Part shown: piece after piece, positions 7,569 through 61,295 of the stretch
How positions within the stretch are numbered: the stretch's first letter is position 1
Layout: each line of letters opens with the position of its first letter
Source: Candidatus Thorarchaeota archaeon
GTDB taxonomy: Archaea; Asgardarchaeota; Thorarchaeia; Thorarchaeales; Thorarchaeaceae
Direction of reading: 5' to 3'
DNA: 64,000 bases
Assembly (NCBI GenBank): GCA_048882045.1
Contig: JBHLRZ010000018.1
Location: forward strand, 1,886-65,885
Made by a program: the position numbers and the translations under genes
The notes under the pieces: generated by a model
Told to the model about the DNA's origin: nothing
The model's database searches: none
The model's input: only the letters and a program-made list of their open reading frames with translations

Positions 7569-7712
7569 ACGCGATTCCTGATGATTCGTGTATTTTCAAA
7601 TAACTGTTTCTTCATACAAAATTGCAACAATCAATGTATAAGGAAATAGGTAGTTCTTTGAGTGAACTATGCAATAATAAAGAAAGGGAAGGAGTGCATC
7701 AAACACTCCTTG

Positions 7713-8651: not shown

Positions 8652-8838
8652 TTTGATCGAGGATAGTGAATCTTGATTGCATTTTATTCGTCATATATTC
8701 GTAAGGGAGGTTTTTCCCAAAATAGAAGGTTAAATGTCCTCAAACTGAACTTCTAGGTTCAGGTTCATGCATTTTCGAAAACAGATTCACTATCTCCTCT
8801 TTGATGCACCCCGCAATGTATAACAGAAACAATCTAGA

Positions 8839-9843: not shown

Positions 9844-9860
9844 GTTCTTGGTGAAAGAAA

Positions 9861-37837: not shown

Positions 37838-38227
37838 TTGATTAAAATGAAAACAGTAGGTTATTTCGACGGTACAGATTCGATTCTTCTCACAAAATTA
37901 GCAGCACAGGGTTTCTGTACAGTCCCGCTTGGAAACGAAATGGATGGTTATGGGAAAATTGCATCTTTCATAGAACCTGGTGCAGTGGACATTATAATTG
38001 CCTACCTTCACAAATTACTACCGCCCCATAAGGACGACAAGAGGGTCATTCCAACCCCAGTGAATCTTCTTCATGCAGCCAATTCATATAACATACCAAT
38101 ATTCGTTATAGTCCCAAAGGAGCTACACAAGGAAGCTAAGAAGCAACTAGGAGAGGCTGCGGATTTTGTTAGAATGGTGACTCCTGAAGATCTTGAAGAA
38201 GAAGTCCGCAAGGAACTGAAAATCTAG
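37838..38227 (+). CDS. Small cytoplasmic protein of unknown function (129 aa)
   Basis: Non-hydrophobic ORF with alternating alpha/beta character, sitting between family members. No motif I recognise. Confidence 0.4.
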   Translation: MIKMKTVGYFDGTDSILLTKLAAQGFCTVPLGNEMDGYGKIASFIEPGAVDIIIAYLHKLLPPHKDDKRVIPTPVNLLHAANSYNIPIFVIVPKELHKEAKKQLGEAADFVRMVTPEDLEEEVRKELKI

Positions 38228-38317: not shown

Positions 38318-39031
38318 CTACTCTCTAAAACGGTATGCTATCAGGTAAACTATAACAACAATTTCGACGAGGAAACCAAATAGGTAAGACACTGGAATAT
38401 TAGAGTCATTAAGTCCTTGATCAGTAATAGTAAATTCAACTTCGCCAGGATAGTACATCAATTGGATTGTATACACTGTGCTGTTAGGGTATCTAGTATG
38501 ATAGTCATATTGTCTGATGCGGTTTGTTTGAGAATCATAGAAAAGATTCTCGGAGATGATAAATCCTACATCAGGAGTCGTCCTGTTTATCGCCACCATG
38601 TCAAATGAAACATAATTAACTGAGAAGTTGAACAACCAAGAATCAGGATCCGTGAAGACCATACCTGATTCGAATGCTGATACATCTAGCCATATAGGAC
38701 AGTATGGCCACCTTTCTACGATGTTCCCCTCAGTGTCAACTACAGCCCACTCTGGAATCCTAAGACGATACTCTTGAATTGCAGAGTTGTTGGTCACTTT
38801 GATTACTGCAATCCCGTCAGTGGGGGACCAGACATCAACTTCAAACTTCACGTAAGTAGCCCAATCTCCACTACTGTGGTAGTATTCATAGTAGGCAGTC
38901 TTCCCGGGATAAAGAGTACCCGATACTGGTTGAATCAGTGTTATTGTAAGAGTCAGACATAGTAGCGTTATTGGAATGATCAGATTTCTGGGAAATTGCC
39001 TGGGTCTTCTAAATGTCGTACAATACCTCAA
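38318..39031 (-). CDS. Small secreted anchored protein, distant member of the family (no Thr linker)
   Basis: A TTG start at 39031 gives the signal peptide MRYCTTFRRPRQFPRNLIIPITLLCLTLTITLIQPVSG. The IPEWAVVD block matches 34681's LPEWYAVD. C-terminus: FGFLVEIVVIVYLIAYRFRE. The ORF is open to 39193 but would then overlap the upstream gene by 136 nt. Confidence 0.5.
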   Translation of the reverse strand: MRYCTTFRRPRQFPRNLIIPITLLCLTLTITLIQPVSGTLYPGKTAYYEYYHSSGDWATYVKFEVDVWSPTDGIAVIKVTNNSAIQEYRLRIPEWAVVDTEGNIVERWPYCPIWLDVSAFESGMVFTDPDSWLFNFSVNYVSFDMVAINRTTPDVGFIISENLFYDSQTNRIRQYDYHTRYPNSTVYTIQLMYYPGEVEFTITDQGLNDSNIPVSYLFGFLVEIVVIVYLIAYRFRE

Positions 39032-39057
39032 GACTGACTCCTCAAATTCATCTTCTA

Positions 39058-39900
39058 TCACACTTCCTTCTTCTTTCGAGTATATAGTATCCATACAATG
39101 ACTAGCTCCACGACTATTGATGCGAGAATGACTACATCGAGAGTAGGTAATGTGAATTGCTGAGAAGTGGTGGTGGTGGTTCTCGGAGGCCAAATGGAAG
39201 ATGTTTGAGTAGTCGTAGTAGTTGAAGTAGGAGTGGGAGTCGGAGGTATGAATTCTTCGATATTTCCAGACACAAGTTCAAAGATGCCTTGGCCATAGAG
39301 TTGGTTTTCCAAAGGGAGACTTGCATTAATGTATTCGATTATGCCTATTATCGCCATTCCCGAAAACGAGTCATAGTAGACATAAGTCAAGTTACGCAGA
39401 TCACCGAATCCCCAAAAATACTCCAGTTCGTAACAATCATACCCTGAATCATAATCAAGGTGTATATAGTCGATGACCCAATGGTTTCTACTTCCTATGA
39501 CATAGGGTTCTCCCAGAGTGACCTGAGACACATCAATCCAAAGTGGCCACAGGAACAACCCTGGTAGCTCTAGAAAACTATTAGGAAATTCTGCAACATA
39601 TGTGTGGTTATACTCACTGAGTATGGATGTGCTAGGTTGATAGGTCACATTACTGAAACAATTGAATTTGATTTCTACCAAATCTGCATCGTAATCTATC
39701 CACCTTGTGAAGTTGTATCTATATGTGAGAGTTTCAGAAAAATTGCCTATGTAACTCTCGTATTCCCAATAGTAGTCAAGAAATAGACCCACTGGTAACT
39801 GATTGGTTTGAGCAAAGGTGTTAGTAGTGAAATTGGCTGAAAGAAGTCCAAGAATAATTGTCAGCACAACAATACTGTGTTTCCTATACTTTCGCCACAT
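39058..39900 (-). CDS. Small secreted anchored protein, paralog family
   Basis: Signal peptide, then AQTNQLPVGLFLDYYWEY…YRYNFTRWIDYD. Linker PTPTPTSTTTTTQTSS…TTTTTSQQ. C-terminus: PTLDVVILASIVVELVIVWILYTRKKKEV. Confidence 0.65.
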   Translation of the reverse strand: MWRKYRKHSIVVLTIILGLLSANFTTNTFAQTNQLPVGLFLDYYWEYESYIGNFSETLTYRYNFTRWIDYDADLVEIKFNCFSNVTYQPSTSILSEYNHTYVAEFPNSFLELPGLFLWPLWIDVSQVTLGEPYVIGSRNHWVIDYIHLDYDSGYDCYELEYFWGFGDLRNLTYVYYDSFSGMAIIGIIEYINASLPLENQLYGQGIFELVSGNIEEFIPPTPTPTSTTTTTQTSSIWPPRTTTTTSQQFTLPTLDVVILASIVVELVIVWILYTRKKKEV

Positions 39901-39938
39901 CTTACCTCACTATTTTCACTTCAAATCTTGATAGCAAG

Positions 39939-40748
39939 CTACTCCTTTCGTTTCAAAAACGTCAATATGATGACAAGTTCTACAAATATTGCCGCTACAA
40001 AAACTATGTCTAAAGTAGGAATTTGATATGATTCCGTTGTTGGTGTCGTAGTAGGAGGTGTGGTAGGAGGTGTGGTCTGTCCTGGGGATGTAGTAGACGT
40101 TGGTGATGTGGGATCAGTGGTTGGGATTGTAGTTGTTTGAGTTGTTGGAATGACGAAATCAGGAGGATTGAAAACATTGAAGTTTCCTGAAAGAACGAAT
40201 GAGCTGTATATTCTCGACCAGTTTCCAGATACGCTTGTTTCCCAATGTGTATAATCAAGTAACAATCCTAATTGTGTGTGATAATACAGGTCTGTTGCAT
40301 TCTCCCATCCATCTTGTTCAAGGATGTACTCAAGTCGGAAACATTCAACGTCGCCAAATGTACCCATGAAATGGTCCACAATTTGGATGATTTGATATTG
40401 AATTCCTGAAATCTGAATAACATGATATAGGTCCCACGTTGAAACATCCATCCAAAGATATGGTTGCTCAGCTAAAGGAAGACGAACCTCGAGGAAAGAC
40501 TGGTTATAATTCACGGAGTCTCTTTCATATTCTAGCTGCAGAGTGCTCAGGTTGGTCCATCGAATGAAATCGTATGTAATCTCGTATTCTGGAATCTCAG
40601 GAGTGTATTGAAAGAATACATTTGTGATGTAAAGAAGATTCATCCCGATAGGAAAGTCATCACGTTGAGCATCGGTGGGCATAACCCACACACTAAGAAG
40701 AAGGATTCCAAATACAAAAGCCACAACAGCAGTCTCTCCCTTCCTCAA
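39939..40748 (-). CDS. Small secreted anchored protein, DFPIG paralog family
   Basis: AQRDDFPIGMNLLYI…YEITYDFIRW. Pro/Thr-rich linker. C-terminus: PTLDIVFVAAIFVELVIILTFLKRKE. Confidence 0.65.
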   Translation of the reverse strand: MRKGETAVVAFVFGILLLSVWVMPTDAQRDDFPIGMNLLYITNVFFQYTPEIPEYEITYDFIRWTNLSTLQLEYERDSVNYNQSFLEVRLPLAEQPYLWMDVSTWDLYHVIQISGIQYQIIQIVDHFMGTFGDVECFRLEYILEQDGWENATDLYYHTQLGLLLDYTHWETSVSGNWSRIYSSFVLSGNFNVFNPPDFVIPTTQTTTIPTTDPTSPTSTTSPGQTTPPTTPPTTTPTTESYQIPTLDIVFVAAIFVELVIILTFLKRKE

Positions 40749-40865: not shown

Positions 40866-42128
40866 ATGACAATGGAAGGGGAAGTAAAAACAAAGAAGAA
40901 TTCGAAAAAAGAAGTGGGCCTTTGGGTCTATCTCGTCTTTTTCGTGGGTTTATTTTTGATATGTATAGCTTTTTCTCTGGCAGGTGTTTCGACCATTCAA
41001 GAAATCTCACTTACGCATATTTCGTCATCTATATTCTTCTCCCTGTTGGGTGTAATCTTCCTGATGTGCTGGATGTTAGTCCCGCCAGAATCTGAAGAGT
41101 CAAAACAGAGAAGGAAAGAGGAACGAGAGCAGCGTAGACAAGCTGAAATCGCGAGATTCAGGAAAGCGGAAGAGGCACGACGTGAGGCTTTGGATCGCAG
41201 GAGAAGGAGACTCGTCGATGAGACAGTTGTCAGAAGAGGTTATCCATCGACGGCAAAGAAACCGATACCGGGTATAACTCATGCCCTATCAGATGTCAGG
41301 AGAGTTCCACCTACCAAGACTACTGAGGGAGTCGAGGTTAGAAGAGGTGGTGAATTCATTGGGAACCGAATGAGGTTCAAGGTCAAGGTTCTCAACGACT
41401 CCTCTTACATTATAACTGATGTCACAGTGTATCTCTTGTCGTATCCAAAGGATGCCCTGAGGTTCGCAGGAGAAGATCATGACATTTTCTTCGCCAAGAT
41501 AGAACCTGGGGGTTTCAGAAGCCCTACATTTGACTTTCTCCCGACCCAAGATTGCGTAAAGGGAGAGATTGTTGCAGGTGTTTCATACATGGATATGCGT
41601 GGTCAACCTCATACTCTCACAGCAAAGCCGTTTGTTATCCGCTCTGTATGCGATCTATTGTTGCCTCAACAAGTGACACCAGAAGACTTCAAGTTGAAAC
41701 TCAAAGATCTTGAATGCGGAGAGATTGCCATCAAAATAGAAGAGTGGACACCAAAGGAGATGTTCGAGAAATCATTGAGAATTGTTGATGAGTCAAACTT
41801 CTTCGAAGTAAGTAGTCACTCAGAAGAAACAGATGGTGTATTCTTTGGGAAGATTGTTGGCTTTGCGAAAGGGAAATACACAGGAAAGGATGTGGGAGTG
41901 GAGATCACGGTAACCGGACCAGTCGGAGTCAAAGGATCTTCTTGCACAATCCAAGTGTCTGGAGAAGACCAAGCGATGATTTTGCCTGCAATCGATGACC
42001 TACGTGAACGTCTGAGTGCATGGCTATGTCCGATGTGCTCAAGTCCCTTGCCCATAGCGAATGTTGAAGACTTGCGTAAAGGCAACGTCGTGAAATGCCA
42101 ATTCTGTGGAGTTTCGATTGGTCGATAG
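40866..42128 (+). CDS. Membrane-anchored protein (2 N-terminal TM, basic coiled-coil-like segment, conserved ~280-aa domain, C-terminal CPxC…CxFCG zinc ribbon); paralog 1 of 3
   Basis: Conserved blocks: RRGGEFIGNRMRFKVKVLNDSSY, IEPGGFRSPTFDFLPTQDCVKGEIVAGVSY, FVIRSVCDLLLP, GKYTGK, IQVSGEDQAMILPAIDDLRERLSAWLCPMCSS…KCQFCGVSIGR. Confidence 0.7.
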   Translation: MTMEGEVKTKKNSKKEVGLWVYLVFFVGLFLICIAFSLAGVSTIQEISLTHISSSIFFSLLGVIFLMCWMLVPPESEESKQRRKEEREQRRQAEIARFRKAEEARREALDRRRRRLVDETVVRRGYPSTAKKPIPGITHALSDVRRVPPTKTTEGVEVRRGGEFIGNRMRFKVKVLNDSSYIITDVTVYLLSYPKDALRFAGEDHDIFFAKIEPGGFRSPTFDFLPTQDCVKGEIVAGVSYMDMRGQPHTLTAKPFVIRSVCDLLLPQQVTPEDFKLKLKDLECGEIAIKIEEWTPKEMFEKSLRIVDESNFFEVSSHSEETDGVFFGKIVGFAKGKYTGKDVGVEITVTGPVGVKGSSCTIQVSGEDQAMILPAIDDLRERLSAWLCPMCSSPLPIANVEDLRKGNVVKCQFCGVSIGR

Positions 42129-42144
42129 GATTCTGTTGAAACGG

Positions 42145-43341
42145 ATGATTATCATGTCACAACAAACTCGGAAACAAGAATCGCAAGCGGAATTTGAATC
42201 CGAGTTTGAAAAAGATAAACCTGTAAATGTTGTAGTACTCGGAGTATGTTTCATTATAATTGTAGTAACAACTATGGTTGTGTTGGTTACGGTCTACTCT
42301 GTACCTTTTACGTTTGAGCAATATATGGTGGTTGTGGCAATTGTTGTTTGCTTTACTTTGGTTTGCTATTGTGCGAAATATTATCCCTTAGATGATAAAA
42401 TATCAGATGGGGAAAGCATGGAGCAACACTACCTGAAAGCAAGAGATACCGCACGGACATATGTTAGACCAAAGAAACCAATCCCGGGAGTAATCAAAAG
42501 TATTGCACCAGTCAAACCTCCACCTACAAAGAGAGAGAACTTGGTCAAAGTTCTCAGAGGTGGTGAGTTCATAGGAAACCGTATGAGGTTCAAAGTGAAG
42601 GTCATCAACGATTCTTCATTCATCCTCTCTGATGTCACAGTATATTTGTTGTCCTACCCAAATGATGCACTCCGTTTCGCAGGGGAAGAAAATCATGTCT
42701 TCTTCTCAAAGATTGAACCAGGAGGTTTTAGAAGCCCAACATTCGACTTCCTACCTACTCAAGATTGTGTCAGAGGAGATATTGTTGCAGGCGTTTCGTA
42801 CATTGACGAGAGGGGAAATCCAAAAGCTCTAACAACCCGTCCGTTTGTGATTCGTTCTGTTTGCGACCTTCTTTTGCCTGAGCAAGTGACACCAGTGGAT
42901 TTCGAGCTCAGATTGAAGGATTTGGAATGTGGTGAAATCACTGTAAAGATTGAAGAATGGACTCCCCAAGAGATGTTTGACAAAGTACTTCGTATCTTGG
43001 ATGAGTCAAATTTCTATGAAGTGAAGAGTGAACTGAAAACAATCGATGAAGTTGTATTTGCTGAGATATCTGGATATGCAAAGGGAAAATACACGGGCAA
43101 GAATATTGCAGTCGAGATTAGTGTGACAGGGCCTGAACGAGTCAACGGTGCTACTTGCAAGATTCAGGTTTCTGGGGAGGACCAAGCAATGATTCTCCCA
43201 GCTATTGATGACCTACGTGAGAGACTGAATGCATGGCTTTGTCCTCAATGCAACAGCTCATTGACACTGGAAAATGTCGTGAATCTTAGGAGAGGAGAAG
43301 TGGTACAATGTCCCTTCTGTGGCATCTCTATAGGACGCTGA
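42145..43341 (+). CDS. Paralog 2 of the membrane-anchored Zn-ribbon protein family
   Basis: About 75% identical to paralog 1 across the conserved domain. Ends CPQCNSS…QCPFCGISIGR. N-terminal anchor is divergent. The frame is open from a GTG at 42106 that overlaps paralog 1. Confidence 0.7.
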   Translation: MIIMSQQTRKQESQAEFESEFEKDKPVNVVVLGVCFIIIVVTTMVVLVTVYSVPFTFEQYMVVVAIVVCFTLVCYCAKYYPLDDKISDGESMEQHYLKARDTARTYVRPKKPIPGVIKSIAPVKPPPTKRENLVKVLRGGEFIGNRMRFKVKVINDSSFILSDVTVYLLSYPNDALRFAGEENHVFFSKIEPGGFRSPTFDFLPTQDCVRGDIVAGVSYIDERGNPKALTTRPFVIRSVCDLLLPEQVTPVDFELRLKDLECGEITVKIEEWTPQEMFDKVLRILDESNFYEVKSELKTIDEVVFAEISGYAKGKYTGKNIAVEISVTGPERVNGATCKIQVSGEDQAMILPAIDDLRERLNAWLCPQCNSSLTLENVVNLRRGEVVQCPFCGISIGR

Positions 43342-43383
43342 TAGTCAAACCATTATTAGGTAGGTTGTTATTCAGATAATATA

Positions 43384-44295
43384 ATGCAAGTACTTGACCC
43401 ATACGTCTTTGGATTGCTCAGCGCGGTAGCAGCAACGATTTTCTTTGGAGTGACGAATATCATCTACCTGAAATTGAGTGAAGACATCAATGTGATGGAC
43501 ATCATGTTCACGCGTATTTGGGTTAGTCTTCCTCTTGCATTTACATTTGCAGTCGGGTCGATTGGTAGTCTCAATATAGTGATCCCTGCAAGCGCAATGC
43601 TGCCTCTTTCAGTGTCGATGATTATAGGAATTGTGATTGGAGATGCGATGTACTTCTTGAGTCAGGAGAGAATCGGAGTTTCTAGAGCATTTCCAATCGC
43701 AATGAGCTATCCTCTTCTTGTCTATTTACTCACCGCACTATTTCTTGGAGAACCTGTTATTGTTCAGAGAATAGTTGGAGCAGTGGCTACCGTCATCGGG
43801 GTTTCTGTAATAGCCAGAGCTGAACATATAGATAGTTCGAACACAGATGGTCGTTGGTCCGATCGAGAAAGAAGGATTGGTTTCATTCTGGCAATATTCA
43901 CAGCCCTTGCATGGGCACTAAGTGATGCCATATTCCAGTTTGGACTTATTTCCGTTGGTGCGGCTGAAAGTAATTATTTCCGTTTGTTAGTTGTTTCAAT
44001 CATATTAATTCCAGTCTTCATCATCTCTTTAAGAGGAGGAAGAAAACTCCCAACAAGAAGTATCACAGGAAAGGCTCTACTTACAGGTCTCTTTGGTGTG
44101 GGTTTTAGCTTGATTGCTTATAGCTACGCTGTAAAATTCATAGGAGCCACTGTGACTTCTGTCATCGTAGCTGCGGCACCTGTGTTCACTGCACCCCTAT
44201 CAGTGCTCTACCTTGGAGAGGACGTCAATTGGAAGGTGGCAATCGGGACTCTTCTTACAATAATAGGAGTAGTTCTTGTAGTATTCATATTTTGA
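43384..44295 (+). CDS. DMT-superfamily (EamA-like) transporter
   Basis: 303 aa, 10 TM, two EamA-like halves. Inserted between paralogs 2 and 3. Confidence 0.65.
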   Translation: MQVLDPYVFGLLSAVAATIFFGVTNIIYLKLSEDINVMDIMFTRIWVSLPLAFTFAVGSIGSLNIVIPASAMLPLSVSMIIGIVIGDAMYFLSQERIGVSRAFPIAMSYPLLVYLLTALFLGEPVIVQRIVGAVATVIGVSVIARAEHIDSSNTDGRWSDRERRIGFILAIFTALAWALSDAIFQFGLISVGAAESNYFRLLVVSIILIPVFIISLRGGRKLPTRSITGKALLTGLFGVGFSLIAYSYAVKFIGATVTSVIVAAAPVFTAPLSVLYLGEDVNWKVAIGTLLTIIGVVLVVFIF

Positions 44296-44355
44296 CTCGA
44301 TGATTTTATAGGCGCTCCCGAGGTTCTTTTATCAGGTATGGTGAGCTAAGTAACA

Positions 44356-45468
44356 ATGCAAGTAGAAGGAGCTTTGTTATCCATTGCGGCGTTCATTATC
44401 ATCTTCGCCGTCATTGTATTTGCGCTATACATCTGTGGGTCATCAGATGATGATATAATGCTCACCAGTCAAGAGAGAGGATATATACCACAGAGTGTTC
44501 GACATGAGTTTCCAATTCTAGGTCAACGATCTGAAGATTATGGAGGACGAGCAAGAGAACAGATCTTGAGGGATTACTTACCAACGAAACGCCCAATCGC
44601 AGGTGTATCAAGAGCTGTCACTGTTTTGAAGAGACCTCCTGCAATGGATGACATAAAAGCTAAGAAGACCGTTGAAGTCAGAAGAGGTGGGGAGTTCATA
44701 GGGAACCGGATGCGTTTCAAAGTAAAAGTGTTGAATAACACAGAGTACACTATTACTGATGTCACAGTGTTCCTTATCTCATATCCAACTGAAACATTAA
44801 GGATTGATGCAAGTGAGCATTCCACTCGTTTTCCCAAGATCGAGCCTGAGGGATTCAGAAGTCCGACATTCGATTTCCTACCGACCCAGGACTGTGTGAA
44901 GGGAGAGATTGTCGCTGGTGTATCATACATCGACTACAGGGGGACTCCTCATTCACTCAATACCAAACCTTTCACTATACGTTCAGTCTGTGATTTATTG
45001 ATGCCCGATAAAATCACAGCTGAAGACTTTGAGCTCAAATTGAAGGATCTAGAATGTGGGGAATTGATCGTAAAGGTAATTGATTGGACTCCTTCCGAGA
45101 TGTTTGACAAGTCACTGAGAATTCTAACAGATGCCAATTTCTATGAAGTCAGCAGTGAGATGACTGAGAATGATGGCATCACATACGCTACAATAACTGG
45201 ATTCGCAAAGGGGAAGTATACAGGAAAACAGGTAGCAGCCAAGATTGCTATCACTGGTCCAGCTGGAAAACCTGGGGCATCTTGTACCATACAAGTATCA
45301 GGCGAAGATCAAGCAATGATACTGCCTGCCATTGATGATCTGAGAGAACGACTCAGTGCGTGGATGTGTCCCAATTGCTCTAGTCCGATTTCTATAGAGA
45401 ATGTAGAGAAACTCAGAGAGGGTAAAATTGTGACATGTCTCTTCTGTGACGCTTCAATTGGAAGATAG
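44356..45468 (+). CDS. Paralog 3 of the membrane-anchored Zn-ribbon protein family (single N-terminal TM)
   Basis: Same conserved domain (RRGGEFIGNRMRFKVKVLNNTEY … CPNCSSPISIENVEKLREGKIVTCLFCDASIGR). Confidence 0.7.
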   Translation: MQVEGALLSIAAFIIIFAVIVFALYICGSSDDDIMLTSQERGYIPQSVRHEFPILGQRSEDYGGRAREQILRDYLPTKRPIAGVSRAVTVLKRPPAMDDIKAKKTVEVRRGGEFIGNRMRFKVKVLNNTEYTITDVTVFLISYPTETLRIDASEHSTRFPKIEPEGFRSPTFDFLPTQDCVKGEIVAGVSYIDYRGTPHSLNTKPFTIRSVCDLLMPDKITAEDFELKLKDLECGELIVKVIDWTPSEMFDKSLRILTDANFYEVSSEMTENDGITYATITGFAKGKYTGKQVAAKIAITGPAGKPGASCTIQVSGEDQAMILPAIDDLRERLSAWMCPNCSSPISIENVEKLREGKIVTCLFCDASIGR

Positions 45469-45501: not shown

Positions 45502-46173
45502 TTATACAAATCCTCGACCGGGTCCAGTCCCGAGCCTGAGCTGGGCATAGCGAGCATCATCGTGAGGTTTGGCACCTTGGAGCTGCCGCTGATACTTTTT
45601 GAATTCATCCTCACAAGTAGATTCAAGCTGGAATTTGGAAACATTAAGTCTGATTTCCTTTTTTCCGATTGATTCGATGAAGTGCGGAGGAACAAGGAGG
45701 TCAATGTCAGGTTGTGCCCCTAGTCTCTCAAGAATTTCTTCAAGGAATCCGCCACCCAGCACGAGCCACATCATATTGTCTTCGTCGAACCATATGTCAA
45801 TGACAAATCCAATCTTGAAATTGTCATCGTCAACAACCTTAATTTCTGACAGTCTTGTGAAGGGTATATCATCGGAACACAAGACACCTGGATCCATCTT
45901 GTTCTTCAGGGTATCACCATCTACCTTTAGATACACCTTGTCTGAAATCGAATCAACATCCTCTAAACTTACAACTGGGTCAATATCTGGCTTTAATCCG
46001 ATTGACTCCAAGAGTTCCTCAACTCGTCCACCTCCTAAGACTAAGTACTTCGGATTCAGTGTGTTTGCGGTGCAGTCAAAGATCCAGTCTATAACTTCCC
46101 CGACAGTATCTCCATCAGAGTCGATAACATCTTTTCCTCTGATATCACTGTACTTTAGCTCGACACATTTCAT
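45502..46173 (-). CDS. Tandem PRC-barrel domain protein
   Basis: Two repeats with the PRC-barrel signature: DVIDSDGDTVGEVIDWIFD…YLVLGGG and VVDDDNFKIGFVIDIWFDEDNMMWLVLGGG. The opposite-strand ORF is a low-complexity shadow. Confidence 0.65.
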   Translation of the reverse strand: MKCVELKYSDIRGKDVIDSDGDTVGEVIDWIFDCTANTLNPKYLVLGGGRVEELLESIGLKPDIDPVVSLEDVDSISDKVYLKVDGDTLKNKMDPGVLCSDDIPFTRLSEIKVVDDDNFKIGFVIDIWFDEDNMMWLVLGGGFLEEILERLGAQPDIDLLVPPHFIESIGKKEIRLNVSKFQLESTCEDEFKKYQRQLQGAKPHDDARYAQLRLGTGPGRGFV

Positions 46174-46305: not shown

Positions 46306-46608
46306 CTAATAGACCTCGCGTGGACTCTCTCTTAGGCGATCGGGTAGCTGGCCACCCTCACCTAAGACTTCAAGTTCATGGTCTCTTCCGTAGCGACCAC
46401 CGTCATTACATAAGAAACCTGTCTTAGTTATACCTCGAGCCTGACGCTCCGCGGCACGTCTGGTAATCATAGTCTTCCCGGATGGCACTGTCATAATCAA
46501 CTTCTTCTGCGCTTCGTCTATGACAAGCAATATTGTGTCATCACTTGCATTACGAGAGGTCTCGAAGAATTGGGAGGTTGACTCGTTAAACTCTAGATAT
46601 ACTGGCAT
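46306..46608 (-). CDS. Hypothetical small protein (100 aa); possibly a degraded P-loop ATPase remnant
   Basis: ILLVIDEAQ followed by SGKTMIT. GC-rich, hairpin-forming sequence at its 3' end. Whether it is a real gene is uncertain. Confidence 0.25.
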   Translation of the reverse strand: MPVYLEFNESTSQFFETSRNASDDTILLVIDEAQKKLIMTVPSGKTMITRRAAERQARGITKTGFLCNDGGRYGRDHELEVLGEGGQLPDRLRESPREVY

Positions 46609-46700: not shown

Positions 46701-47432
46701 TTACAAAAGATGTGCAGTTCCACAGTGAGCACACACAACAGCATCATCAAACTCTCCCGGTAGCGGAAGAGGTGCACCGCAATTCTGACATTTGAGGTCT
46801 CGAATCTCTGATCGTTTCTCCTTTGGAATATTGAGTTTGAATACTCGGTCTGCTACATCTTGAATCGACTTACCAATCTTCTGTGCAGCTCTTGCTATCG
46901 AACTTCGTTCAGGATCAGTAAGAGAACCCAACCCAACAGCTTGGAAGAAACTGTCGATTACTTTACCAATCTTTCCAAAAATGGAGCCAGCTTTCCATGC
47001 CATGACATCAGATACGTGGAGTTCAAGAAGTTCTGAATCTGGATGACCAGGTATCTCGTATCCTCTCTTCCAGTCAACACGGCCCTCTCGTTTCGATGAA
47101 AGTGTATGACCACACTTAGGACAGAACATCTGCCATTCCTTGCCGAAGAATCCCTTCCGCTTCTTACGTTCTCCAACATTATACCAGCATCTCTTGTGAG
47201 CTATGCTCTCGCAGTTAGGGCATGAAAAGAGATGATATTGGTCCGGTTTAGCCTTCTCACCACGACCTGAGAATACCTTAAGATATGTCAAGTCATCATT
47301 TGTATAGTTGAGAAGATACCTGCCACAGATAAAGCATGTTCTACCATCAAGTTTGTTCAATTTCTCTGGAGTCAGTCGCAATCCTCTATACCTCATACTC
47401 ACAGTGAACATTAAGCAATAAGAATCTTGCAT
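46701..47432 (-). CDS. Multi-zinc-finger protein: N-terminal C4HC3 (PHD/RING-variant-like) spacing plus C-terminal CxxC…CxxC zinc ribbon
   Basis: CFIC…(34)…CPNC-x4-H-x2-C…(21)…CPKC, and at the C-terminus CQNCGAPL…CAHCGT. Confidence 0.55.
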   Translation of the reverse strand: MQDSYCLMFTVSMRYRGLRLTPEKLNKLDGRTCFICGRYLLNYTNDDLTYLKVFSGRGEKAKPDQYHLFSCPNCESIAHKRCWYNVGERKKRKGFFGKEWQMFCPKCGHTLSSKREGRVDWKRGYEIPGHPDSELLELHVSDVMAWKAGSIFGKIGKVIDSFFQAVGLGSLTDPERSSIARAAQKIGKSIQDVADRVFKLNIPKEKRSEIRDLKCQNCGAPLPLPGEFDDAVVCAHCGTAHLL

Positions 47433-48242: not shown

Positions 48243-51200
48243 CTACCTTCTTCTATAGAGGACACAAACAATGACCACTAGAGCAACAACACCACCAACA
48301 ATCAAGTAGAGAGTCATTGGATTGCCATCACCAGAGTAGGGAGTAGTTGGTGTAGTTCCAGGAGGTCCTTGTGCACTTGTGTATGCTACAAAGATTGGGT
48401 CACAGATGATATCATGACCTCCCCAGTTTTTGTAACCAGCTGTCATGAATAGCATGGATGCTTCAACATTCCAATTGGTCACAGAACTTCCTGAAGCAGA
48501 TTCATACATCAGACTGAAGGCTCCTATCGGAGCTGTGGAAGATCCTGAAGTATGGGAACTGCCATCATAGCCCCAAATATATGGGAGTCCGCCCATTTCT
48601 ACACTTGCATAGGGATTGTTTTCAGCTCCGAACTCATAGTAGTCTGCATTTTGGCTTGCACCATTGTTATCAGTAACAGGTTGATCACCAGCAGTATATC
48701 GTGTGACCGTTCCTGTGGCAAGAACTCCAAAGAAGTTCACAGCCAGACTTCGTCCGTCTAACACAGAATTATCAAAGTCATAGAGAGTCCAGTCACCAAT
48801 TGTCTGGTCAATCTTGAACGACACAGCATGATTCCAAGTCAATGGATCCGCAGCATCATAGTTGACCATATCAACATTGAAGCTGATATCAAATGCCATC
48901 TCGTCGACTATAGCGCTTGTGACCCAGTAGTCGAAGTTGGTTGCATTTAGACCAACGGCGCCCTCATAGGACTGTCTGAAATCCCAAGCACCTCTCAATG
49001 CTGATGAGTGTTCTACTTTCAATGGATAAATGGTCACATTCACATCAGTGATGGTAACCCCAAAGGTAACCTCAGTATCAGGACTGACTTGCACGTTGCC
49101 CGAGTTATTTGTAGCGCCAAATGGTCTACGGAGCGAGACTGCTCCGACCTCATCAACCAAGACGAGGTGTGTGACTTCGTCAGTCACCACCTGCCCTCCT
49201 TCAATTGAGAAATCTGGAGCACTCTCGGACGGGCCGAGACCATCATTGAAGATGAGTAATCCAGCGTATTGCGATCTGAAGTGTGCCAGTGTTGCTTGAT
49301 CTTCAGCGATACCTACCCAGAAGTTCTGAGTAGTTCCCCAAGCAAACCATGTAGTAGTCCACTTACCTTGTTCTAGACCGGGAATAGCTGTTATATCAAG
49401 TGTCCAGTTCCTGGAAAGCCAAGAAACGTACTCATAACCCGGTGTTGGTAGATTGTTATCAAAGTCAGCCCACATCAGATTTTGAATGTCAGCCATCTCA
49501 CTTGCACTAATTGATGATCCATCAGAGGCGTGATACCAGTAGAAGGTTTCGTTGGCGTTAAACCAGATATTCTGTTCTACAACACCCATCCAGTTCTGAG
49601 ACCAGAATTCATCTCCAGGTGCACCAGGTGAAGGATCAAAGCCAACACCTACCAACATTCCTTCAACTGTCACATTGCCCCAGTCTTCCCAATAACCAGT
49701 CCTTTTGATATAGTATTGGTCATCTACTGTGAAGATATTTCCATCGAGGTCGATAGCACCGTTCTCCGTCACAATCCAAATAGGAGGTGTGTAGGAGGGC
49801 ACTTCACCAAGACGGAGGTGTCGTGGACTCCAGAGAATGTCATCTGAAACATCGATAACATTGTAGTAATCTGTCCAAGTGGCAATTAGAGCATTATACT
49901 GTTCAACTGTAAGTTCAGTACCATTCAGATGGTCTGGGAAGGCCCAATCTGTTCCATTCCACCATCGAACATTCTGAATCAGACCTACTTTAATTGAGGC
50001 TTTATCAATGACCATATCAGGTGCTTCAGCATCAAAGCTGAACTCGACAATGACAGTCGAAAGGTCATCACCAAGTTTGATTACGAAGCCAGATACTGTC
50101 AAATGATTTGCAGGAATTGAGATAGGTCCCCATAGTTTACCAAGTTCTCTTGAATACATTGTTATTTTGTACTGACTAGATGTTGAATGAGTGCCTAATT
50201 CATAATCGAGAATCGCCGTATGTGTGATATCAACTCTCCAATAATGAGTGGCATTACCATCCATTATTGAACCATGAACTTCGATGGTCACATCCTTTAG
50301 TTCTGAAGTGATGTTAAAGAAAGCGCTTGGCTCAGGTTCAATTACCAAAGAACCATCTATCAAATTGACATCTCTGTGAACCAATATTGTTAGATTCAAT
50401 GGATCGCCCTGTAGAGCATTATTAGCAATCTGACCTATATCATCGAAAACAAACGCTTCTATGAAAGTTGTACGAAATGAAAACTTCAATGTCTGACGGT
50501 CAGAGATCTCAGGTCGAGCAATAATGGGATTACCGCTGGTATCAAGAACAGTGACGAGATCCATTATGGGTTGCACAGTCCCACCATATTCCAATCCTGG
50601 ATCGAGATCCGTTTCATTTGTGAAATATCCAGCCCACTGAACTCTATGACCTGCATCAAAGACTCCTGTGAGAACAGGATCCTCAACATAGTATGTGCTT
50701 AGGTCAATTGTTGAGTTTTCGATAATTGAGAATACGGGGAACCACATCATGATTCCGCCACCAAGATCGATTGGGTCCCAAGTTAGGTTGAGGTATCCAG
50801 CTACTGGAAATGCACCAGTAGAATTTAGAATGAATACCATTGTTGGTAGTAGTTCGAAAGTCCTATTGGAGAACTTGAGATCTCTATCAAATAAAGCAGA
50901 AGGTCCCTCAGAATCCAATCTGTCGGGATAGGACCAAGTCACATTGATTTTGTATTGCGCATCAAAGGTAAGTTGTTCAACTAATGGAATTAGACAACTT
51001 CCAATCTCAGCTGACGACCGCATTCTAAGTATGAAGGTGTCATTGACATCTGCATAGTGCAGAATTCTTCCAGTTTCATCAACGATGTCTGCATAGTAGT
51101 AATCAGGTAGGGAAAAATCTAGTGGATTAACTGCCATTCCAAGTCCAATTGGAGGAGTTCCATATCTTCCAGCTACTGAAGCTGTCAACCATGAGGACGA

Positions 51201-51806
51201 AACGGGTCTTCCATTTGTATCAATCACCTGCATACCGGTTGTAAGTATCATTGGTGCAAGTGCAATCTCATATGTGATAGCAAAAACTACATTATAGAAA
51301 TCAGCTTCTTCTGTGAAATCGGAGTTCGATGAATCTAGAGACATGAACCTCGCCGGTTGTGGTTCTTCAGAGCCTGGTACATATCTGAAACCTAGACTGT
51401 TCCATTCATTTGAAGTGGCATTGTATTCCAATCCAAATACTGGAGCTCTTGGACCTGCTCTTGTACCCCAGAACTGAATTACATCTAGAATATTACCTTC
51501 ACCAAGGAATGACTTTGGAATGATCATATTTACGGTAAGGTCCATTCCAACTTCAATCCTATAGCTGTTTTCTGCAATATCTGTCCCATTGTCATATTCT
51601 ATCCAGATGTCTGGTTGTGGGCCAAATATCCAGTCGGAGTGTTGTTCAGAATGTTCGAATTGTCGTGTATCATTAGCAACCTCCCAAGCAACATGTAAAA
51701 CTGGATCACGTTGACTCTGAGCGATAGCAGGACTAATCGAGCCAACAACACTCACGAGCAGTATAACGATTAGTGTTATTGTGTAAACTTTCCTCATTTT
51801 ATCCAC
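48243..51806 (-). CDS. Large secreted surface protein (1187 aa) with C-terminal TM anchor (…LYLIVGGVVALVVIVCVLYRRR)
   Basis: Signal peptide MRKVYTITLIVILLVSVVGSISPAIA. Sequon-rich. Not a paralog of the 526/4029 pair. Confidence 0.75.
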   Translation of the reverse strand: MDKMRKVYTITLIVILLVSVVGSISPAIAQSQRDPVLHVAWEVANDTRQFEHSEQHSDWIFGPQPDIWIEYDNGTDIAENSYRIEVGMDLTVNMIIPKSFLGEGNILDVIQFWGTRAGPRAPVFGLEYNATSNEWNSLGFRYVPGSEEPQPARFMSLDSSNSDFTEEADFYNVVFAITYEIALAPMILTTGMQVIDTNGRPVSSSWLTASVAGRYGTPPIGLGMAVNPLDFSLPDYYYADIVDETGRILHYADVNDTFILRMRSSAEIGSCLIPLVEQLTFDAQYKINVTWSYPDRLDSEGPSALFDRDLKFSNRTFELLPTMVFILNSTGAFPVAGYLNLTWDPIDLGGGIMMWFPVFSIIENSTIDLSTYYVEDPVLTGVFDAGHRVQWAGYFTNETDLDPGLEYGGTVQPIMDLVTVLDTSGNPIIARPEISDRQTLKFSFRTTFIEAFVFDDIGQIANNALQGDPLNLTILVHRDVNLIDGSLVIEPEPSAFFNITSELKDVTIEVHGSIMDGNATHYWRVDITHTAILDYELGTHSTSSQYKITMYSRELGKLWGPISIPANHLTVSGFVIKLGDDLSTVIVEFSFDAEAPDMVIDKASIKVGLIQNVRWWNGTDWAFPDHLNGTELTVEQYNALIATWTDYYNVIDVSDDILWSPRHLRLGEVPSYTPPIWIVTENGAIDLDGNIFTVDDQYYIKRTGYWEDWGNVTVEGMLVGVGFDPSPGAPGDEFWSQNWMGVVEQNIWFNANETFYWYHASDGSSISASEMADIQNLMWADFDNNLPTPGYEYVSWLSRNWTLDITAIPGLEQGKWTTTWFAWGTTQNFWVGIAEDQATLAHFRSQYAGLLIFNDGLGPSESAPDFSIEGGQVVTDEVTHLVLVDEVGAVSLRRPFGATNNSGNVQVSPDTEVTFGVTITDVNVTIYPLKVEHSSALRGAWDFRQSYEGAVGLNATNFDYWVTSAIVDEMAFDISFNVDMVNYDAADPLTWNHAVSFKIDQTIGDWTLYDFDNSVLDGRSLAVNFFGVLATGTVTRYTAGDQPVTDNNGASQNADYYEFGAENNPYASVEMGGLPYIWGYDGSSHTSGSSTAPIGAFSLMYESASGSSVTNWNVEASMLFMTAGYKNWGGHDIICDPIFVAYTSAQGPPGTTPTTPYSGDGNPMTLYLIVGGVVALVVIVCVLYRRR

Positions 51807-57378: not shown

Positions 57379-59340
57379 GTGATTGAGGGACATGATTGGA
57401 GTTCTCGAGGGATGAGTATGGAAGAAGATGACTCTTCGTTTATTGGACGCCGACTGAAGCAGACGGGAGACCTATTGCTTGGTGGTGCTCAGAAACAGGT
57501 CGTCGATTACAGGAGCAAGTTCGAGGGGCTTGTGGGAGCCTATGATGATTTCCTCTCGAACCTGCTTGTATCTTACAGTGATGCATTATTCAATCTCGAC
57601 TTTGTTGACAAGTTCTTTGGCAAAAGAAAACTGGCTTTCGCTGGAATCGATGGTACGGTACTAAAGTATGATGTCTTTGACCTCGTGGTCTTCTTTGCAG
57701 GAGCCTATAGTTCACACGGGGGCATAGTAATAGAGGAATCTGGAGAGGGGAAAATCACCTATGATGAGAAATATTTGGAAAAAGGGATGGGAGTATCAAG
57801 TGTCCTTCCGGTATACATCAACGAAATACCTCTCATTGATCAAACACTACTCGTACGTAGCGAGGATGGTCTTATCGACAATTCGATAACATTCACTGAT
57901 GCATGGGTTGTTGATAATTCTGCTTTTGCAGACTATCTGATGGGACTTGCAGAGTTCTACCTTGGATACAAGTTGGTCAGTATTGAAAATCCAGTGGATA
58001 TCTTACTGATTGATCGTGTGTTCTCCTCAGAAATAGCTTCATTCTATGCTGAAACCTCAGACTTCCGGCTGAGCCTTGATCACGAGTGTGGGATTATCGG
58101 ACATAAGATAGATGGTCAACCTTTCAACAAGACAGAGTGGGTCAATGCAAGGAAGTTGTTTGGAAATCTAGACCTCGGTACACCACCTGCTAGAGGAGAG
58201 TTTCTGTTGTCGAGAGTTGTGACAGAACTCCTTAATGAAACGAGTCACTCAATGACCAGGGATGAGATAGCTGCAAGACTCTGGTTGAAAGACGAGTTTC
58301 ATCTAGCAAGACTCGACAAAGAACTCGAGAAAGGAATCAGAGGTTCTGGAGAGGCGGAAGGCATCATCATTCGCAAGGGAAAACAATTCATCGTGAAGCC
58401 GCAGTATAAGGACATCAAATCACGAGTGAGGAAACTTGTTGAAGAGGTCTGTGAGAGGATGTTCTCAGCAGACCCCAATGTGTCCTACGAAGAGAGGTTC
58501 AAGATTGATGGACGTTGGATCACGACAAATGACCTTGCGTTCCTGTCACTCATGTCGTTGTATCTCATGGTTGAGAAATGTTGGGAGAACCCGACACTGC
58601 TGGTTGGAGTGGCAAAGGACACTTCTGCACGAGACCTCAAGAGACAGGTTCTACCTGTATTGAATTACGTTGGTCGATTCAATGGTGGTTTTGGAGATAA
58701 GGGACAGGATACACCTGACACAGATCGCATGATACTCCAATGGATTTCTCTTCAGGAACAAGAAAAGATCAAGGTCCCATGGTCAACGGTAGAGTATGAT
58801 ACAGCGTTCAAGACAATCATACCTCATTACAAAAGAACACCCGGGCTTGTTTCAGGAGCCCGTCGAAACCAGATATCTCTAGAGAAGACATTCGCCAAGT
58901 CCTACTTCCAGCTGTGTCAGGCTGCTTCCGATCCCAAACTTCGAAGCAATGTACTACTCTATGACAGGTTGATATATCCGGAGTTTGATTGTGGAACAGA
59001 CAGACTAACGACTCTCCCACACGAGTATGAGAACAGGCCAGATAGTCCTGAACCTGTTGAGGTAGTCTTCTATGAGGGTGTAGACAACCAAGTTCAATCA
59101 TTCATAATTACTCTGTTCAAGGGAATGACCAGCACGAGTATTCCCGAACTCTTTGGGCACATCCGTCCGCTGTATATAGCTGACAAAGTAGCCAAATATT
59201 ACTGGAGCCAGTTCAAGGGAATGGTCGAGAGTACTGGCGTTTGGCTGGTCAATCGCCAAGATCTGAGAGAATTCCTATTCTATCTTAGTAGCTTTAGAGA
59301 AAGGAGGTCAAGTGTTGAGCAATCAAGAAAGACAAACTAG
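57379..59340 (+). CDS. NurA-like nuclease domain protein (653 aa) with long uncharacterised C-terminal extension
   Basis: KLAFAGIDGTVLKYD resembles NurA motif I (aaVDGS). Overlaps the downstream HerA-like gene by 29 nt. Confidence 0.45.
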   Translation: MIEGHDWSSRGMSMEEDDSSFIGRRLKQTGDLLLGGAQKQVVDYRSKFEGLVGAYDDFLSNLLVSYSDALFNLDFVDKFFGKRKLAFAGIDGTVLKYDVFDLVVFFAGAYSSHGGIVIEESGEGKITYDEKYLEKGMGVSSVLPVYINEIPLIDQTLLVRSEDGLIDNSITFTDAWVVDNSAFADYLMGLAEFYLGYKLVSIENPVDILLIDRVFSSEIASFYAETSDFRLSLDHECGIIGHKIDGQPFNKTEWVNARKLFGNLDLGTPPARGEFLLSRVVTELLNETSHSMTRDEIAARLWLKDEFHLARLDKELEKGIRGSGEAEGIIIRKGKQFIVKPQYKDIKSRVRKLVEEVCERMFSADPNVSYEERFKIDGRWITTNDLAFLSLMSLYLMVEKCWENPTLLVGVAKDTSARDLKRQVLPVLNYVGRFNGGFGDKGQDTPDTDRMILQWISLQEQEKIKVPWSTVEYDTAFKTIIPHYKRTPGLVSGARRNQISLEKTFAKSYFQLCQAASDPKLRSNVLLYDRLIYPEFDCGTDRLTTLPHEYENRPDSPEPVEVVFYEGVDNQVQSFIITLFKGMTSTSIPELFGHIRPLYIADKVAKYYWSQFKGMVESTGVWLVNRQDLREFLFYLSSFRERRSSVEQSRKTN

Positions 59341-61234
59341 CCGAAGTCTTTTCACAGACTTTGATGGAGCCTTCGAAGGAAGGTTGGCAAGGGTCATCTC
59401 TGTGGCTGCAAATTACACTTCTGAATGGGCGGGTTCAGCAGCTCGATATGACTGTCGGATCAAGATTCGATACAACAAGGAGCTGATGGCTCAGCTAGAG
59501 GAAGGCATGTTGTTAGCTGTGAAAAACTTCAGAGGACAGTCAAAGAGAGCCATTAGTGAGGGCATCGTACGTTATACTGTCATGGTAATTAGTAAGGTGT
59601 GGCCACTTCACTATGGCCTTGGCGGAGTAAGTGACAGCCATTACTACCCTCTACAAATGGAAATAATCGAACAGTCTGTTCCTGATTGGTCGACTGACGA
59701 CCAGGCAACTATGATGGTCCAAATGAATGCTGTTCCGATCAACTACGACCTCATTATCGACAAAAAAGGAGAGATAGAGTTCAGAAAGGGATTCTCATAT
59801 CCATTGGTTGGCGAGAAAGCTCATGTCATTGACTTGGAAACTGTCGATCTCATCTACAATGACAAGGTGAAGAAAGCTATGGGATTTGCCAAGAAGACAA
59901 CATCAGAAGACCCCAAGAAAGATCCTAGAGTTGGAGTACTCAGGATGTTCATGGAATCGGATCACCAGGTCCCAATCTATGTCGATTTGGCGAAGCTTGT
60001 CAGATACCACTTTGGTGTATTCAGCTTCACAGGCGGCGGAAAAAGCAATCTGATGTCTAATCTATTCAGACGAATCCTCTATCACGATAAGGACACTAAA
60101 CTTGTGTTATTCGATATCTCGTGTGAGTATCCCTTCTTGCTTAGTGATGTCTTCATGGATCCCAAAATCCAAAGTACCATAGTTTTGGAGGAGGACCCCA
60201 AGACCCCAGAAAACTTCGCTCGCTCAGTTGTCAAACCACGAGACTTCGAAGAAGATCCTCGAGCCAATGACATCTTGAGGGCTATATATGACACTGGAAA
60301 AGTCACATTCTACAACCGACCACTCACACAAGTTCCAACATATGGTAGCCTCTTACAGGAGATGCGAGGGTTGCGGACAGAGAACTCTGGTAGACCTACA
60401 TATGTTCAAGCAATGGATGAGCTCATAGACTTCCTTGCTTCATATGTGAATTCTACAGGTAAGACTGAGCATGAAGAGATTGACGATGCTTTTGTGGATC
60501 TACTTGACCAAGAGGCACGAAAAGCTATCGCGACATTTCAAGTCCATGACAAATCTACACTTTATGCATGGGCCACAACAAGGAATACCCTCAAGAAGGT
60601 TCTTTCAAGAGCTAAAAGTGCAAAGCAAACTGGTGTAACCATCAAGGAACTGATGAAGAAGTTCAGTGGTCCTGAACGAGTTATCTGCATCTCCATAGCA
60701 GATCCAGACACTCTTCGAGACCTAGTCATCAAACTGACAAGTGCAGCACTTCGATATCGAAAACGCAGCTTTGAAATTAAACCCCATATTCTGTTCGTCT
60801 TTGATGAGGCTCAAGAGTTCATCCCATCAGGTGCAAGTGGCCATCTAGCACAGACGAGTGCAGCAGTAGAAAGACTCCTTCGGCAGGGGAGAAAGTATGG
60901 TCTCGGAGGAGCTATTGCAACCCAGAGGATAGCGTATCTCAATACGAACATACTTCAGCAGCTACACACCTTCTTTGTTGGGACATTACCTCGTCCCTAT
61001 GACCGGACTGTGGTGAGTAGTTCATTTCAGATCGACCTGAGTATCCTTGACAAGACCCTAGATTTCCCACCTGGGTCGTGGTTGTTATCAAGTTACATCG
61101 CCACCGGACTTGACAGCGTTCCAGTCTTTGTCAAAGCGGACAACTCAGAGGATGTTTTGAGGAAACATATTGCATCAATCGCATCCAGCGCTAAGAAAGG
61201 AGCGTCTGATTCGGAACAGACCAAACTAGAATGA
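59312..61234 (+). CDS. herA: HerA-like (DUF87 / FtsK-HerA superfamily) ATPase
   Basis: HAS-barrel-like N-terminus, Walker A FSFTGGGKSN, Walker B ILFVFDEAQEF, and the HerA-type GLGGAIATQRIAYLNTNILQQ. GTG start 5 nt after AAGGAGGT. Confidence 0.8.
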   Translation: MLSNQERQTSRSLFTDFDGAFEGRLARVISVAANYTSEWAGSAARYDCRIKIRYNKELMAQLEEGMLLAVKNFRGQSKRAISEGIVRYTVMVISKVWPLHYGLGGVSDSHYYPLQMEIIEQSVPDWSTDDQATMMVQMNAVPINYDLIIDKKGEIEFRKGFSYPLVGEKAHVIDLETVDLIYNDKVKKAMGFAKKTTSEDPKKDPRVGVLRMFMESDHQVPIYVDLAKLVRYHFGVFSFTGGGKSNLMSNLFRRILYHDKDTKLVLFDISCEYPFLLSDVFMDPKIQSTIVLEEDPKTPENFARSVVKPRDFEEDPRANDILRAIYDTGKVTFYNRPLTQVPTYGSLLQEMRGLRTENSGRPTYVQAMDELIDFLASYVNSTGKTEHEEIDDAFVDLLDQEARKAIATFQVHDKSTLYAWATTRNTLKKVLSRAKSAKQTGVTIKELMKKFSGPERVICISIADPDTLRDLVIKLTSAALRYRKRSFEIKPHILFVFDEAQEFIPSGASGHLAQTSAAVERLLRQGRKYGLGGAIATQRIAYLNTNILQQLHTFFVGTLPRPYDRTVVSSSFQIDLSILDKTLDFPPGSWLLSSYIATGLDSVPVFVKADNSEDVLRKHIASIASSAKKGASDSEQTKLE

Positions 61235-61295
61235 AACTCACGTGGTATTTTTATCACCTGAAGAAGACTCGATGGTGCAGAAATGAGGCAGGCTG

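Follow-up and report, generated by a model that had tools for sequence, protein, structure and literature searches.

The appendage, or ear, domains of adaptins and of the COPI coat are recruitment hubs of eukaryotic vesicle coats. In the alpha and beta2 subunits of AP-2, and in the beta and gamma subunits of COPI, the ear consists of a beta-sandwich followed by a platform, and it comes after a flexible hinge-like linker. It is established that the ears serve accessory proteins as hubs for their short peptide motifs (PMC10936438). Here, we deal with three tandem paralogous genes, referred to as copies 1, 2 and 3, that are found in a stretch of 64,000 nucleotides from Candidatus Thorarchaeota archaeon (assembly GCA_048882045.1, contig JBHLRZ010000018.1, positions 1,886 to 65,885 of the forward strand). 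The whole of this stretch is called the window, and positions are given within it.

Ear-like domains have been described in archaea from two directions. In the parts of Eme et al. 2023 (Nature 618:992, PMC10307638) that are drawn on here, the Asgard proteins assigned to PF02883 are reported as sparse, standalone Alpha_adaptinC2 domains, and no appendage domain was found directly C-terminal to Adaptin_N in Asgard archaea. The entries of its Supplementary file 5 that served as test sequences are of two types, namely Lokiarchaeales proteins of ~330 amino acids in which a sandwich and a platform precede a CxxC...CxxC ribbon, and Helarchaeales membrane proteins of ~495 amino acids in which the module follows the last transmembrane (TM) segment. 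In the table portion examined, the PF02883 entries come from Loki- and Helarchaeales, with none from Thorarchaeia. Makarova et al. 2024 (mBio 15:e00335-24, PMC10936438) describe an archaeal "adaptin appendage region" made up of immunoglobulin-like (Ig-like) and TBP-like subdomains, and regard appendage domains as interaction hubs. [quoted passage not shown] In Asgard multidomain proteins, the region occurs together with Vps28-C, longin, TPR, Ig-like and helix-turn-helix (HTH)/PCI domains. Neither the main text and Table S3 of Makarova 2024 nor its supplementary passages on adaptin and Thorarchae tie a Thorarchaeota protein to the appendage region, and neither appendages nor adaptins come up in the main text of a structure-based Asgard survey from 2026.

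The domain is thus largely known from Asgard archaea, and it is the Thorarchaeota subfamily that escapes Pfam. The products of the three genes are a Pfam-invisible, membrane-tethered Thorarchaeota variant of the reported Asgard adaptin-appendage-like proteins. An earlier note on this DNA had recognized no named family in them and had proposed an undescribed system, a claim that gives way before the predicted ear fold, the shared family with the proteins of Eme 2023 and the appendage regions of Makarova 2024.

The genes are open reading frames (ORFs) on the + strand at 40866-42128, 42106-43341 and 44356-45468, encoding 420, 411 and 370 amino acids, respectively. A gene for an EamA-family transporter (Pfam EamA, E 2.5e-35) lies between copies 2 and 3, an arrangement that the earlier note had described correctly. 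The paralogs are 57% identical over the whole protein and share a C-terminal module of ~265 residues; the shared domain had been noted before, at an identity of ~75% that is slightly too high, as the pairwise values over the last 275 residues are 73, 68 and 63%. That the genes are real follows from the 347 database homologs, the best 120 of which are 53-100% identical, and from the dozens of columns that are invariant across an alignment of 106 sequences. A protein identical to that of copy 3, NCBI MFW9812844.1, is known from a Candidatus Thorarchaeota metagenome-assembled genome. All named homologs from the homolog search and the genome scan belong to Thorarchaeota or Promethearchaeota, that is, to Asgard archaea; the genome scan for loci made use of Thorarchaeota-specific peptide patterns, and so sets no bound on the taxonomic range.

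The number of paralogs varies from 1 to 5 per locus. In another Thorarchaeota genome, the positional orthologs of copies 1, 2 and 3 are 91, 81 and 79% identical to them, which is closer than any pair of paralogs within the window (63-73%). Judged from these sequences, the triplication is old, and not recent as had been supposed. Sequence comparison also indicates that the paralogs are under strong purifying selection.

The fold of the module was predicted with AlphaFold2 for copy 3 (44356..45468, 370 amino acids), using the alignment of 106 sequences. The model has a mean predicted local distance difference test (pLDDT) value of 77.9, rising to ~80-95 across the module. It comprises an N-terminal TM helix (residues 2-28, nucleotides 44359-44439), a linker of low model confidence that appears disordered (residues 29-105, nucleotides 44440-44670), an Ig-like beta-sandwich of the kind found in the eukaryotic ear (residues 106-217, nucleotides 44671-45006), a TBP-like alpha/beta platform directly after it (residues 222-335, nucleotides 45019-45360) and a four-cysteine (C4) zinc ribbon (residues 338-370, nucleotides 45367-45465). 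The sandwich and the platform align jointly to solved ears. The structural matches of the model include the AP-2 beta2 appendage (3h1z, score 14.4), the AP-2 alpha appendage (1w80, 14.0, with 178 residues aligned), the gamma-COP appendage (1r4x, 13.5) and, over the platform only, the AP-4 beta appendage (2mj7, 12.8, with 134 of 141 residues aligned). In Foldseek, the best 14 matches are all adaptin or COPI appendages, extending over ~240 columns with E values from 2.8e-11 to 1.8e-07 and target-normalized template modelling scores (TM-scores) of up to 0.71. From the parts of the model and these matches, the module is predicted to be a complete two-subdomain adaptin/COPI ear with an added C-terminal C4 ribbon. 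The adaptor or scaffold role suggested in the earlier note is compatible with such a fold.

Scans of all three copies against Pfam and NCBIfam gave only weak zinc-ribbon matches. Among these, a sub-cut-off match of copy 1 to Vps36-NZF-N (E 0.008) was rejected as generic ribbon similarity, because it is absent in copies 2 and 3 and because the spacer of 19 residues between the cysteine pairs is longer than that of NZF fingers. A mu-homology domain (Adap_comp_sub, PF00928), to which a faint resemblance had earlier been suggested, was likewise set aside, as neither the family model nor a mu-subunit structure was matched; the suggestion pointed to the right machinery, that of adaptors, but it is the ear fold that fits.

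The kinship with the published Asgard proteins was addressed with a broad family profile, built from 144 module regions and controlled with 100 shuffles. Against the Hel- and Lokiarchaeales proteins of Eme 2023, this profile gives 54.1, 50.1, 39.7 and 37.4 bits, compared with 3.0 bits for the best shuffle, and a Thorarchaeota-only profile still gives 32.3 and 25.9 bits. On these scores, the window proteins belong to the same sequence family as the Asgard Alpha_adaptinC2 proteins of Eme 2023. With current Pfam, three of the Loki proteins match PF02883 at E ~1e-3 and at the homologous position, although at 19.4-19.8 bits they stay below the cut-off of 27.6. The Lokiarchaeales proteins of ~330 amino acids share with the window proteins the order sandwich, platform and ribbon. 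In contrast to the Eme 2023 proteins, the window paralogs reside in a conserved multi-paralog locus with an EamA gene and lack any PF02883 signal at E <= 1.

Similarly, the proteins of Makarova 2024 resemble this family in their Ig-like plus TBP-like region, in an optional zinc ribbon and in the kinds of fusion that are found, the likeness to arCOG15284 (for instance, Methanosalsum WP_013898571.1) resting on the published description. However, those proteins were defined by ESCRT neighborhoods (Vps4/ESCRT-III) or ESCRT domains, whereas the window paralogs are without ESCRT neighbors. The eukaryotic AP-2 and COPI ears share with the window modules the predicted sequence of sandwich and platform after a flexible linker, but they sit on a HEAT-solenoid trunk within a heterotetramer, whereas the window modules sit on a membrane anchor without Adaptin_N. 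The window modules also carry the extra C-terminal zinc ribbon and have no directly detectable sequence similarity to the eukaryotic ears. The GAE-plus-platform domains of the BBSome subunits BBS1 and BBS9, which follow beta-propellers in a soluble coat-like complex, give a weaker match than the AP and COPI ears.

By hydrophobicity analysis, copies 1 and 2 each have two hydrophobic segments and copy 3 has a single one at its extreme N-terminus, where the model places helix 2-28; the earlier assignment of a two-TM hairpin to two copies and of a single TM helix to the third is borne out. In copy 1 (40866..42128, 420 amino acids), as delineated by the ORF call, hydrophobicity and alignment with copy 3 and its model, the hairpin spans residues ~17-72 (nucleotides 40914-41081), with Lys-rich and Arg-rich flanks at both cytoplasmic ends. 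It is followed by a charged E/R/K-rich linker (residues 73-155, nucleotides 41082-41330), the appendage-like module (residues 156-387, nucleotides 41331-42026) and the C4 zinc ribbon (residues 388-420, nucleotides 42027-42125). A basic, coiled-coil-like stretch had been claimed for every copy, but such an E/R/K-rich segment is present only in copy 1, and its length varies among orthologs. In copy 2 (42106..43341), the two hydrophobic segments occupy residues ~40-92 (nucleotides 42223-42381), the module starts at residue ~147 (nucleotide 42544) and the ribbon spans residues 379-411 (nucleotides 43240-43338), all in the numbering of the 411-residue form.

The anchors also survive correction of the start codons. 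The NCBI annotation of copy 1 gives a protein of 354 amino acids from M67, which omits the hairpin (nucleotides 40866-41063 are affected), while a different gene caller arrives at 420. In the positional orthologs, conservation extends over the N-terminal 66 residues from the very start, through the hairpin to MT.EGE, and the long form and its anchor therefore stand; on this conservation, the M67 start is probably a mis-called start codon in the public record. For copy 2, a start at ATG 42145, giving 398 amino acids, is more likely than the GTG at 42106 that gives 411. A 398-residue database protein (P0113) is an exact substring of copy 2 at an offset of 13, matching the ATG start, and both hydrophobic segments are kept with this start.

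The zinc ribbon follows the pattern CPxC-x19-CxFC, with all four cysteines invariant in the alignment of 106 sequences. A C-terminal ribbon had been noticed before, with a spacer of 17 residues and with CxFCG in every copy; the spacer is 19, and copy 3 ends in CLFCDASIGR. Within the otherwise variable linker, a short motif, K-R-P-I-[PA]-G-V, is conserved (residues 78-84 of copy 3, nucleotides 44587..44607, + strand), with KKPIPGI and KKPIPGV as its equivalents in copies 1 and 2, respectively. Across the 106 Thorarchaeota sequences, I81 and G83 never vary and P80 and V84 hardly do, and the pLDDT of the copy 3 model is below 50 around the motif, which may be a candidate short linear docking motif. 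As a separate observation, two cysteines of copy 3 outside the zinc ribbon, C180 (44893-44895, motif QDC) and C212 (44989-44991, motif VCDLL), are nearly invariant across 93 very diverse family members and are absent from the soluble Lokiarchaeales relatives.

The module is far more widespread than the window copies. A HMMER scan of 1.84 billion cluster representatives places 541 clusters in the family at E <= 1e-3 and 163 at E <= 1e-30, and those members that are named belong to Thor-, Hel-, Loki- and Njordarchaeota. The module is mostly C-terminal, in proteins of up to 2867 amino acids. Architectures were classified for 148 of the best-scoring 150 representatives listed. An N-terminal signal or anchor, a large ectodomain, one TM segment and then the module are found in 40 of the 148, and a multipass membrane domain followed by the module in 41; 26 have a short anchor and the module, like the window copies, and 34 have no TM segment. 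In ~72% of the 148, the module stands behind TM segments, often after large ectodomains, with a median linker of 55 residues between the two. A zinc ribbon is present in 96 of them and two tandem modules in 6. The ectodomains carry Big_13, PKD, beta-propeller, beta-helix/NosD, LVIVD, FG-GAP and SBP_bac_5 domains, whereas in the soluble relatives the fusion partners are HEAT, TPR, LRR, PCI/winged-helix and EAP30/Vps36 domains, the last of ESCRT-II type.

The four invariant cysteines, the architectures of the family and the partners of the soluble fusions all indicate that the module lies in the cytoplasm, as a cytoplasmic tail, and the membrane-tethered cytoplasmic domain proposed in the earlier note is upheld. 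An extracellular module was also considered and was ruled out by the zinc ribbon, the topology of the family and the cytosolic type of the fusion partners. In the portions of the Asgard and archaeal appendage literature covered here, this pattern of a cytoplasmic tail of membrane proteins was not found discussed.

Two soluble relatives deserve description. One, a protein of 705 amino acids from a Joint Genome Institute metagenome (P0243), begins with ~200 residues of HEAT repeats (HEAT_2, 7.7e-29; a weak Adaptin_N match, 0.006), a part that is short and generic, and continues with an ear-like module at ~215-442 and a C-terminal region of ~260 residues. The other, of 780 amino acids (P0240), has N-terminal winged-helix/HTH regions, the module at ~369-601 and a C-terminal EAP30/Vps36 domain (E 1.5e-09). 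Its 90% cluster contains MDO8135975.1 of Candidatus Njordarchaeum guaymaensis, and it is the only direct ESCRT-II-type link found for the module family.

Taken as a whole, we think it probable, with some reserve, that the three paralogs are old members of a Thorarchaeota adaptin-appendage-like subfamily and act as membrane-tethered interaction hubs. The anchors that hold the proteins in the cytoplasmic membrane are minimal and N-terminal, with a hairpin for copies 1 and 2 and one helix for copy 3. After the anchor, a flexible charged linker of ~55-85 residues bears a rigid cytoplasmic module, in which the predicted Ig-like sandwich and alpha/beta platform, ordered as in the AP-2 and COPI ears, are followed by the C4 zinc ribbon. 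At the inner face of the membrane, the module would serve as a protein-protein interaction hub that recruits or clusters soluble partners, much as an adaptin hinge-plus-ear does. The window copies would be stand-alone, anchor-only versions, since in many Asgard surface receptors and multipass membrane proteins this module makes up the cytoplasmic tail, and since it is also found fused to HEAT, TPR and LRR scaffolds and to an ESCRT-II-type domain; they may act together, perhaps with the EamA protein. The hub function, its partners and any link to EamA are suggested by the analogy with ears and by the fusion partners of the family.

The EamA gene provides the most serious alternative. It lies at 43384..44295 on the + strand, 42 nucleotides 3' of copy 2 and 60 nucleotides 5' of copy 3 and co-directional with them, and encodes an EamA/DMT-family transporter of 303 amino acids that matches PF00892 in two stretches (122 bits against a cut-off of 28.2), so that both repeats are present above the Pfam cut-off. 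The window copies are probably co-expressed with it. The paralogs could be dedicated accessory or regulatory subunits of the transporter, which gate, stabilize or position it, and not general hubs. All four genes share a strand, with gaps of 17-60 nucleotides, and among 48 Thorarchaeota/Asgard loci from species-representative genomes EamA precedes a module gene in 26, either immediately or with one small surface-protein gene in between, despite variation in paralog number and in neighbors. Many family members also have the module fused to multipass membrane domains. However, none of 10 multipass fusion proteins scanned contains EamA or another known transporter domain, more distant module genes and a second type of locus are without EamA, and all of the loci come from one class, in which shared ancestry could explain the synteny. 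In addition, a TATA-like TTTTATAGG stands 5' of copy 3, which may consequently have its own promoter. A role confined to the transporter therefore seems unlikely to us, if by no means negligible.

The wider gene order is also conserved. In the block, AFOR is followed by a protein of 126 amino acids, small surface proteins, module genes, EamA and further module genes, and then by a PRC-barrel protein, a protein of 100 amino acids, a multi-zinc-ribbon protein, a histidine phosphatase and a giant surface protein. The block recurs in many Thorarchaeota genomes, with the PRC, 100-residue and zinc-ribbon genes convergent to the module genes. The 126-residue protein (37847..38227, + strand) is restricted to Thorarchaeota, heads the syntenic block in many genomes and has a predicted CheY-like (flavodoxin-like) fold. 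Three small predicted surface proteins of ~269-291 amino acids (38318..40748, - strand) have a Thr/Pro-rich stalk, a C-terminal TM segment, a short basic tail and no Pfam match. Two of the three are detectably related (E 1e-12), and in other Thorarchaeota loci their relatives are interleaved with module genes, between EamA and the module genes. The only sign of a fusion between a small surface protein and the module is a 13-bit match through the low-complexity stalk and TM segment, which was counted as no evidence.

Downstream of copy 3, all on the - strand, are the PRC-barrel protein (45502-46173; Pfam PRC, 2.1e-12), the 100-residue protein (46306-46608) and the multi-zinc-ribbon protein (46701-47432), whose matches to Prok-RING_1 (1.7e-05) and DZR (4.3e-05) are both sub-cut-off. 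The earlier note had seen a functional module of the paralogs with the EamA, PRC and zinc-finger genes. The gene order is indeed conserved across Thorarchaeota, but the PRC and zinc-finger genes are on the opposite strand, some genomes have ~3 kilobases between the module genes and the PRC/100-residue/zinc-ribbon block, and a link of these three genes to the paralogs is unproven synteny.

Other parts of the window and of related genomes hold further features. Three giant predicted surface proteins of 1168-1187 amino acids are encoded at 526-7568 and 48243-51806, all on the - strand, and none has an ear-like module; the first two contain Big_7, and the third is without a Pfam match and has a C-terminal TM segment followed by RRR. 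A HerA-like ATPase (DUF87, 4.1e-16) and then a small Arf/Ras-family GTPase (Arf, 8.5e-11) are found at 59312-61859 on the + strand, with no evident link to the paralogs. A second conserved Thorarchaeota locus (L040-L051; for example, L045 at 6504-10742) encodes a protein of ~760 amino acids with two tandem ear-plus-ribbon modules and an adjoining relative of ~620 amino acids, flanked by M28 peptidases, HD_assoc, DUF2070, a flavoprotein, PadR and an ABC transporter.

Several points weigh against reading the paralogs as ear-based hubs. Pfam scans of the large ORFs in the 64-kilobase window reveal no ESCRT, coat or longin gene, the only small GTPase in the window lies 16 kilobases downstream, and the second type of Thorarchaeota locus has no trafficking or ESCRT neighbors. 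None of the three copies matches PF02883 or PF09066 (B2-adapt-app_C) at E values of up to 1, and a sequence search of the PDB, with a single protein and with the family profile, returned nothing relevant and no adaptin chain. The predicted template modelling score (pTM) of the copy 3 model is only 0.51 for the whole chain, a low value that is due to the disordered linker. The link to eukaryotic ears is made through a predicted structure and a transitive, partly sub-threshold, chain of sequence matches. Finally, the Ig-sandwich and helix-grip folds are both widespread, and convergence of each half is conceivable.

It could be, then, that the likeness to ears is convergent, and that the module pairs a generic Ig-like domain with a KA1- or Bet v 1-type helix-grip domain that binds a membrane lipid or small ligand, giving it a sensing or anchoring role at the membrane surface. 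Yet the two subdomains align together and in order over the ~240 columns to solved ears, outranking all single-domain matches. The independent, if weak, PF02883 matches of the relatives fall at the homologous position, and the fusions involve protein-scaffold domains and an ESCRT-II domain. Convergence is, to our minds, improbable. More doubtful still, to the point of being very improbable, are membrane-tethered nucleic-acid-binding or transcription regulators that act through the ribbon and the platform and are released or activated by a membrane signal: the C4 ribbon does weakly match TFIIB, TFS4 and LysW-type ribbons, and the platform is TBP-like (helix-grip), as is the distal appendage subdomain in Makarova 2024 (PMC10936438), but no DNA-binding family is significant, the best structural matches are protein-binding ears, and the locus has no protease or sigma/anti-sigma-type partner.

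Interaction hubs built on an ear-like module thus remain our preferred account of the paralogs. A bolder proposal equates the module with the adaptin/COPI ear, as its counterpart in archaea: Asgard membrane proteins would have it built in as a cytoplasmic tail for sorting or recruitment, in a primitive cargo-adaptor network that predates the heterotetrameric adaptors. We put this forward as a speculation with only a small chance of being right. Were it true, an ear of their own would be found in hundreds of proteins, be they receptors, multipass or, like the three paralogs, anchor-only, and the soluble HEAT, TPR and ESCRT-II-type relatives would supply the link to membrane-remodelling machinery.

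In the portions of the published surveys covered here, Asgard ears appear either as sparse domains that stand alone or within soluble ESCRT-related proteins. To this picture, the locus adds a Pfam-invisible Thorarchaeota subfamily, under strong purifying selection and with several old paralogs per genome, and a family whose dominant architecture is a membrane protein with a predicted cytoplasmic ear. The value of the finding lies in the family-wide occurrence of this membrane-tail architecture, in the extension of the domain to Thorarchaeota and in concrete, clonable candidates in the search for ligands of archaeal ears. Should the function prove to be unrelated to trafficking, more than 500 clusters of hypothetical proteins would still gain a useful annotation from the result. 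The candidates bear on whether the surface receptors of Asgard archaea couple to intracellular machinery.

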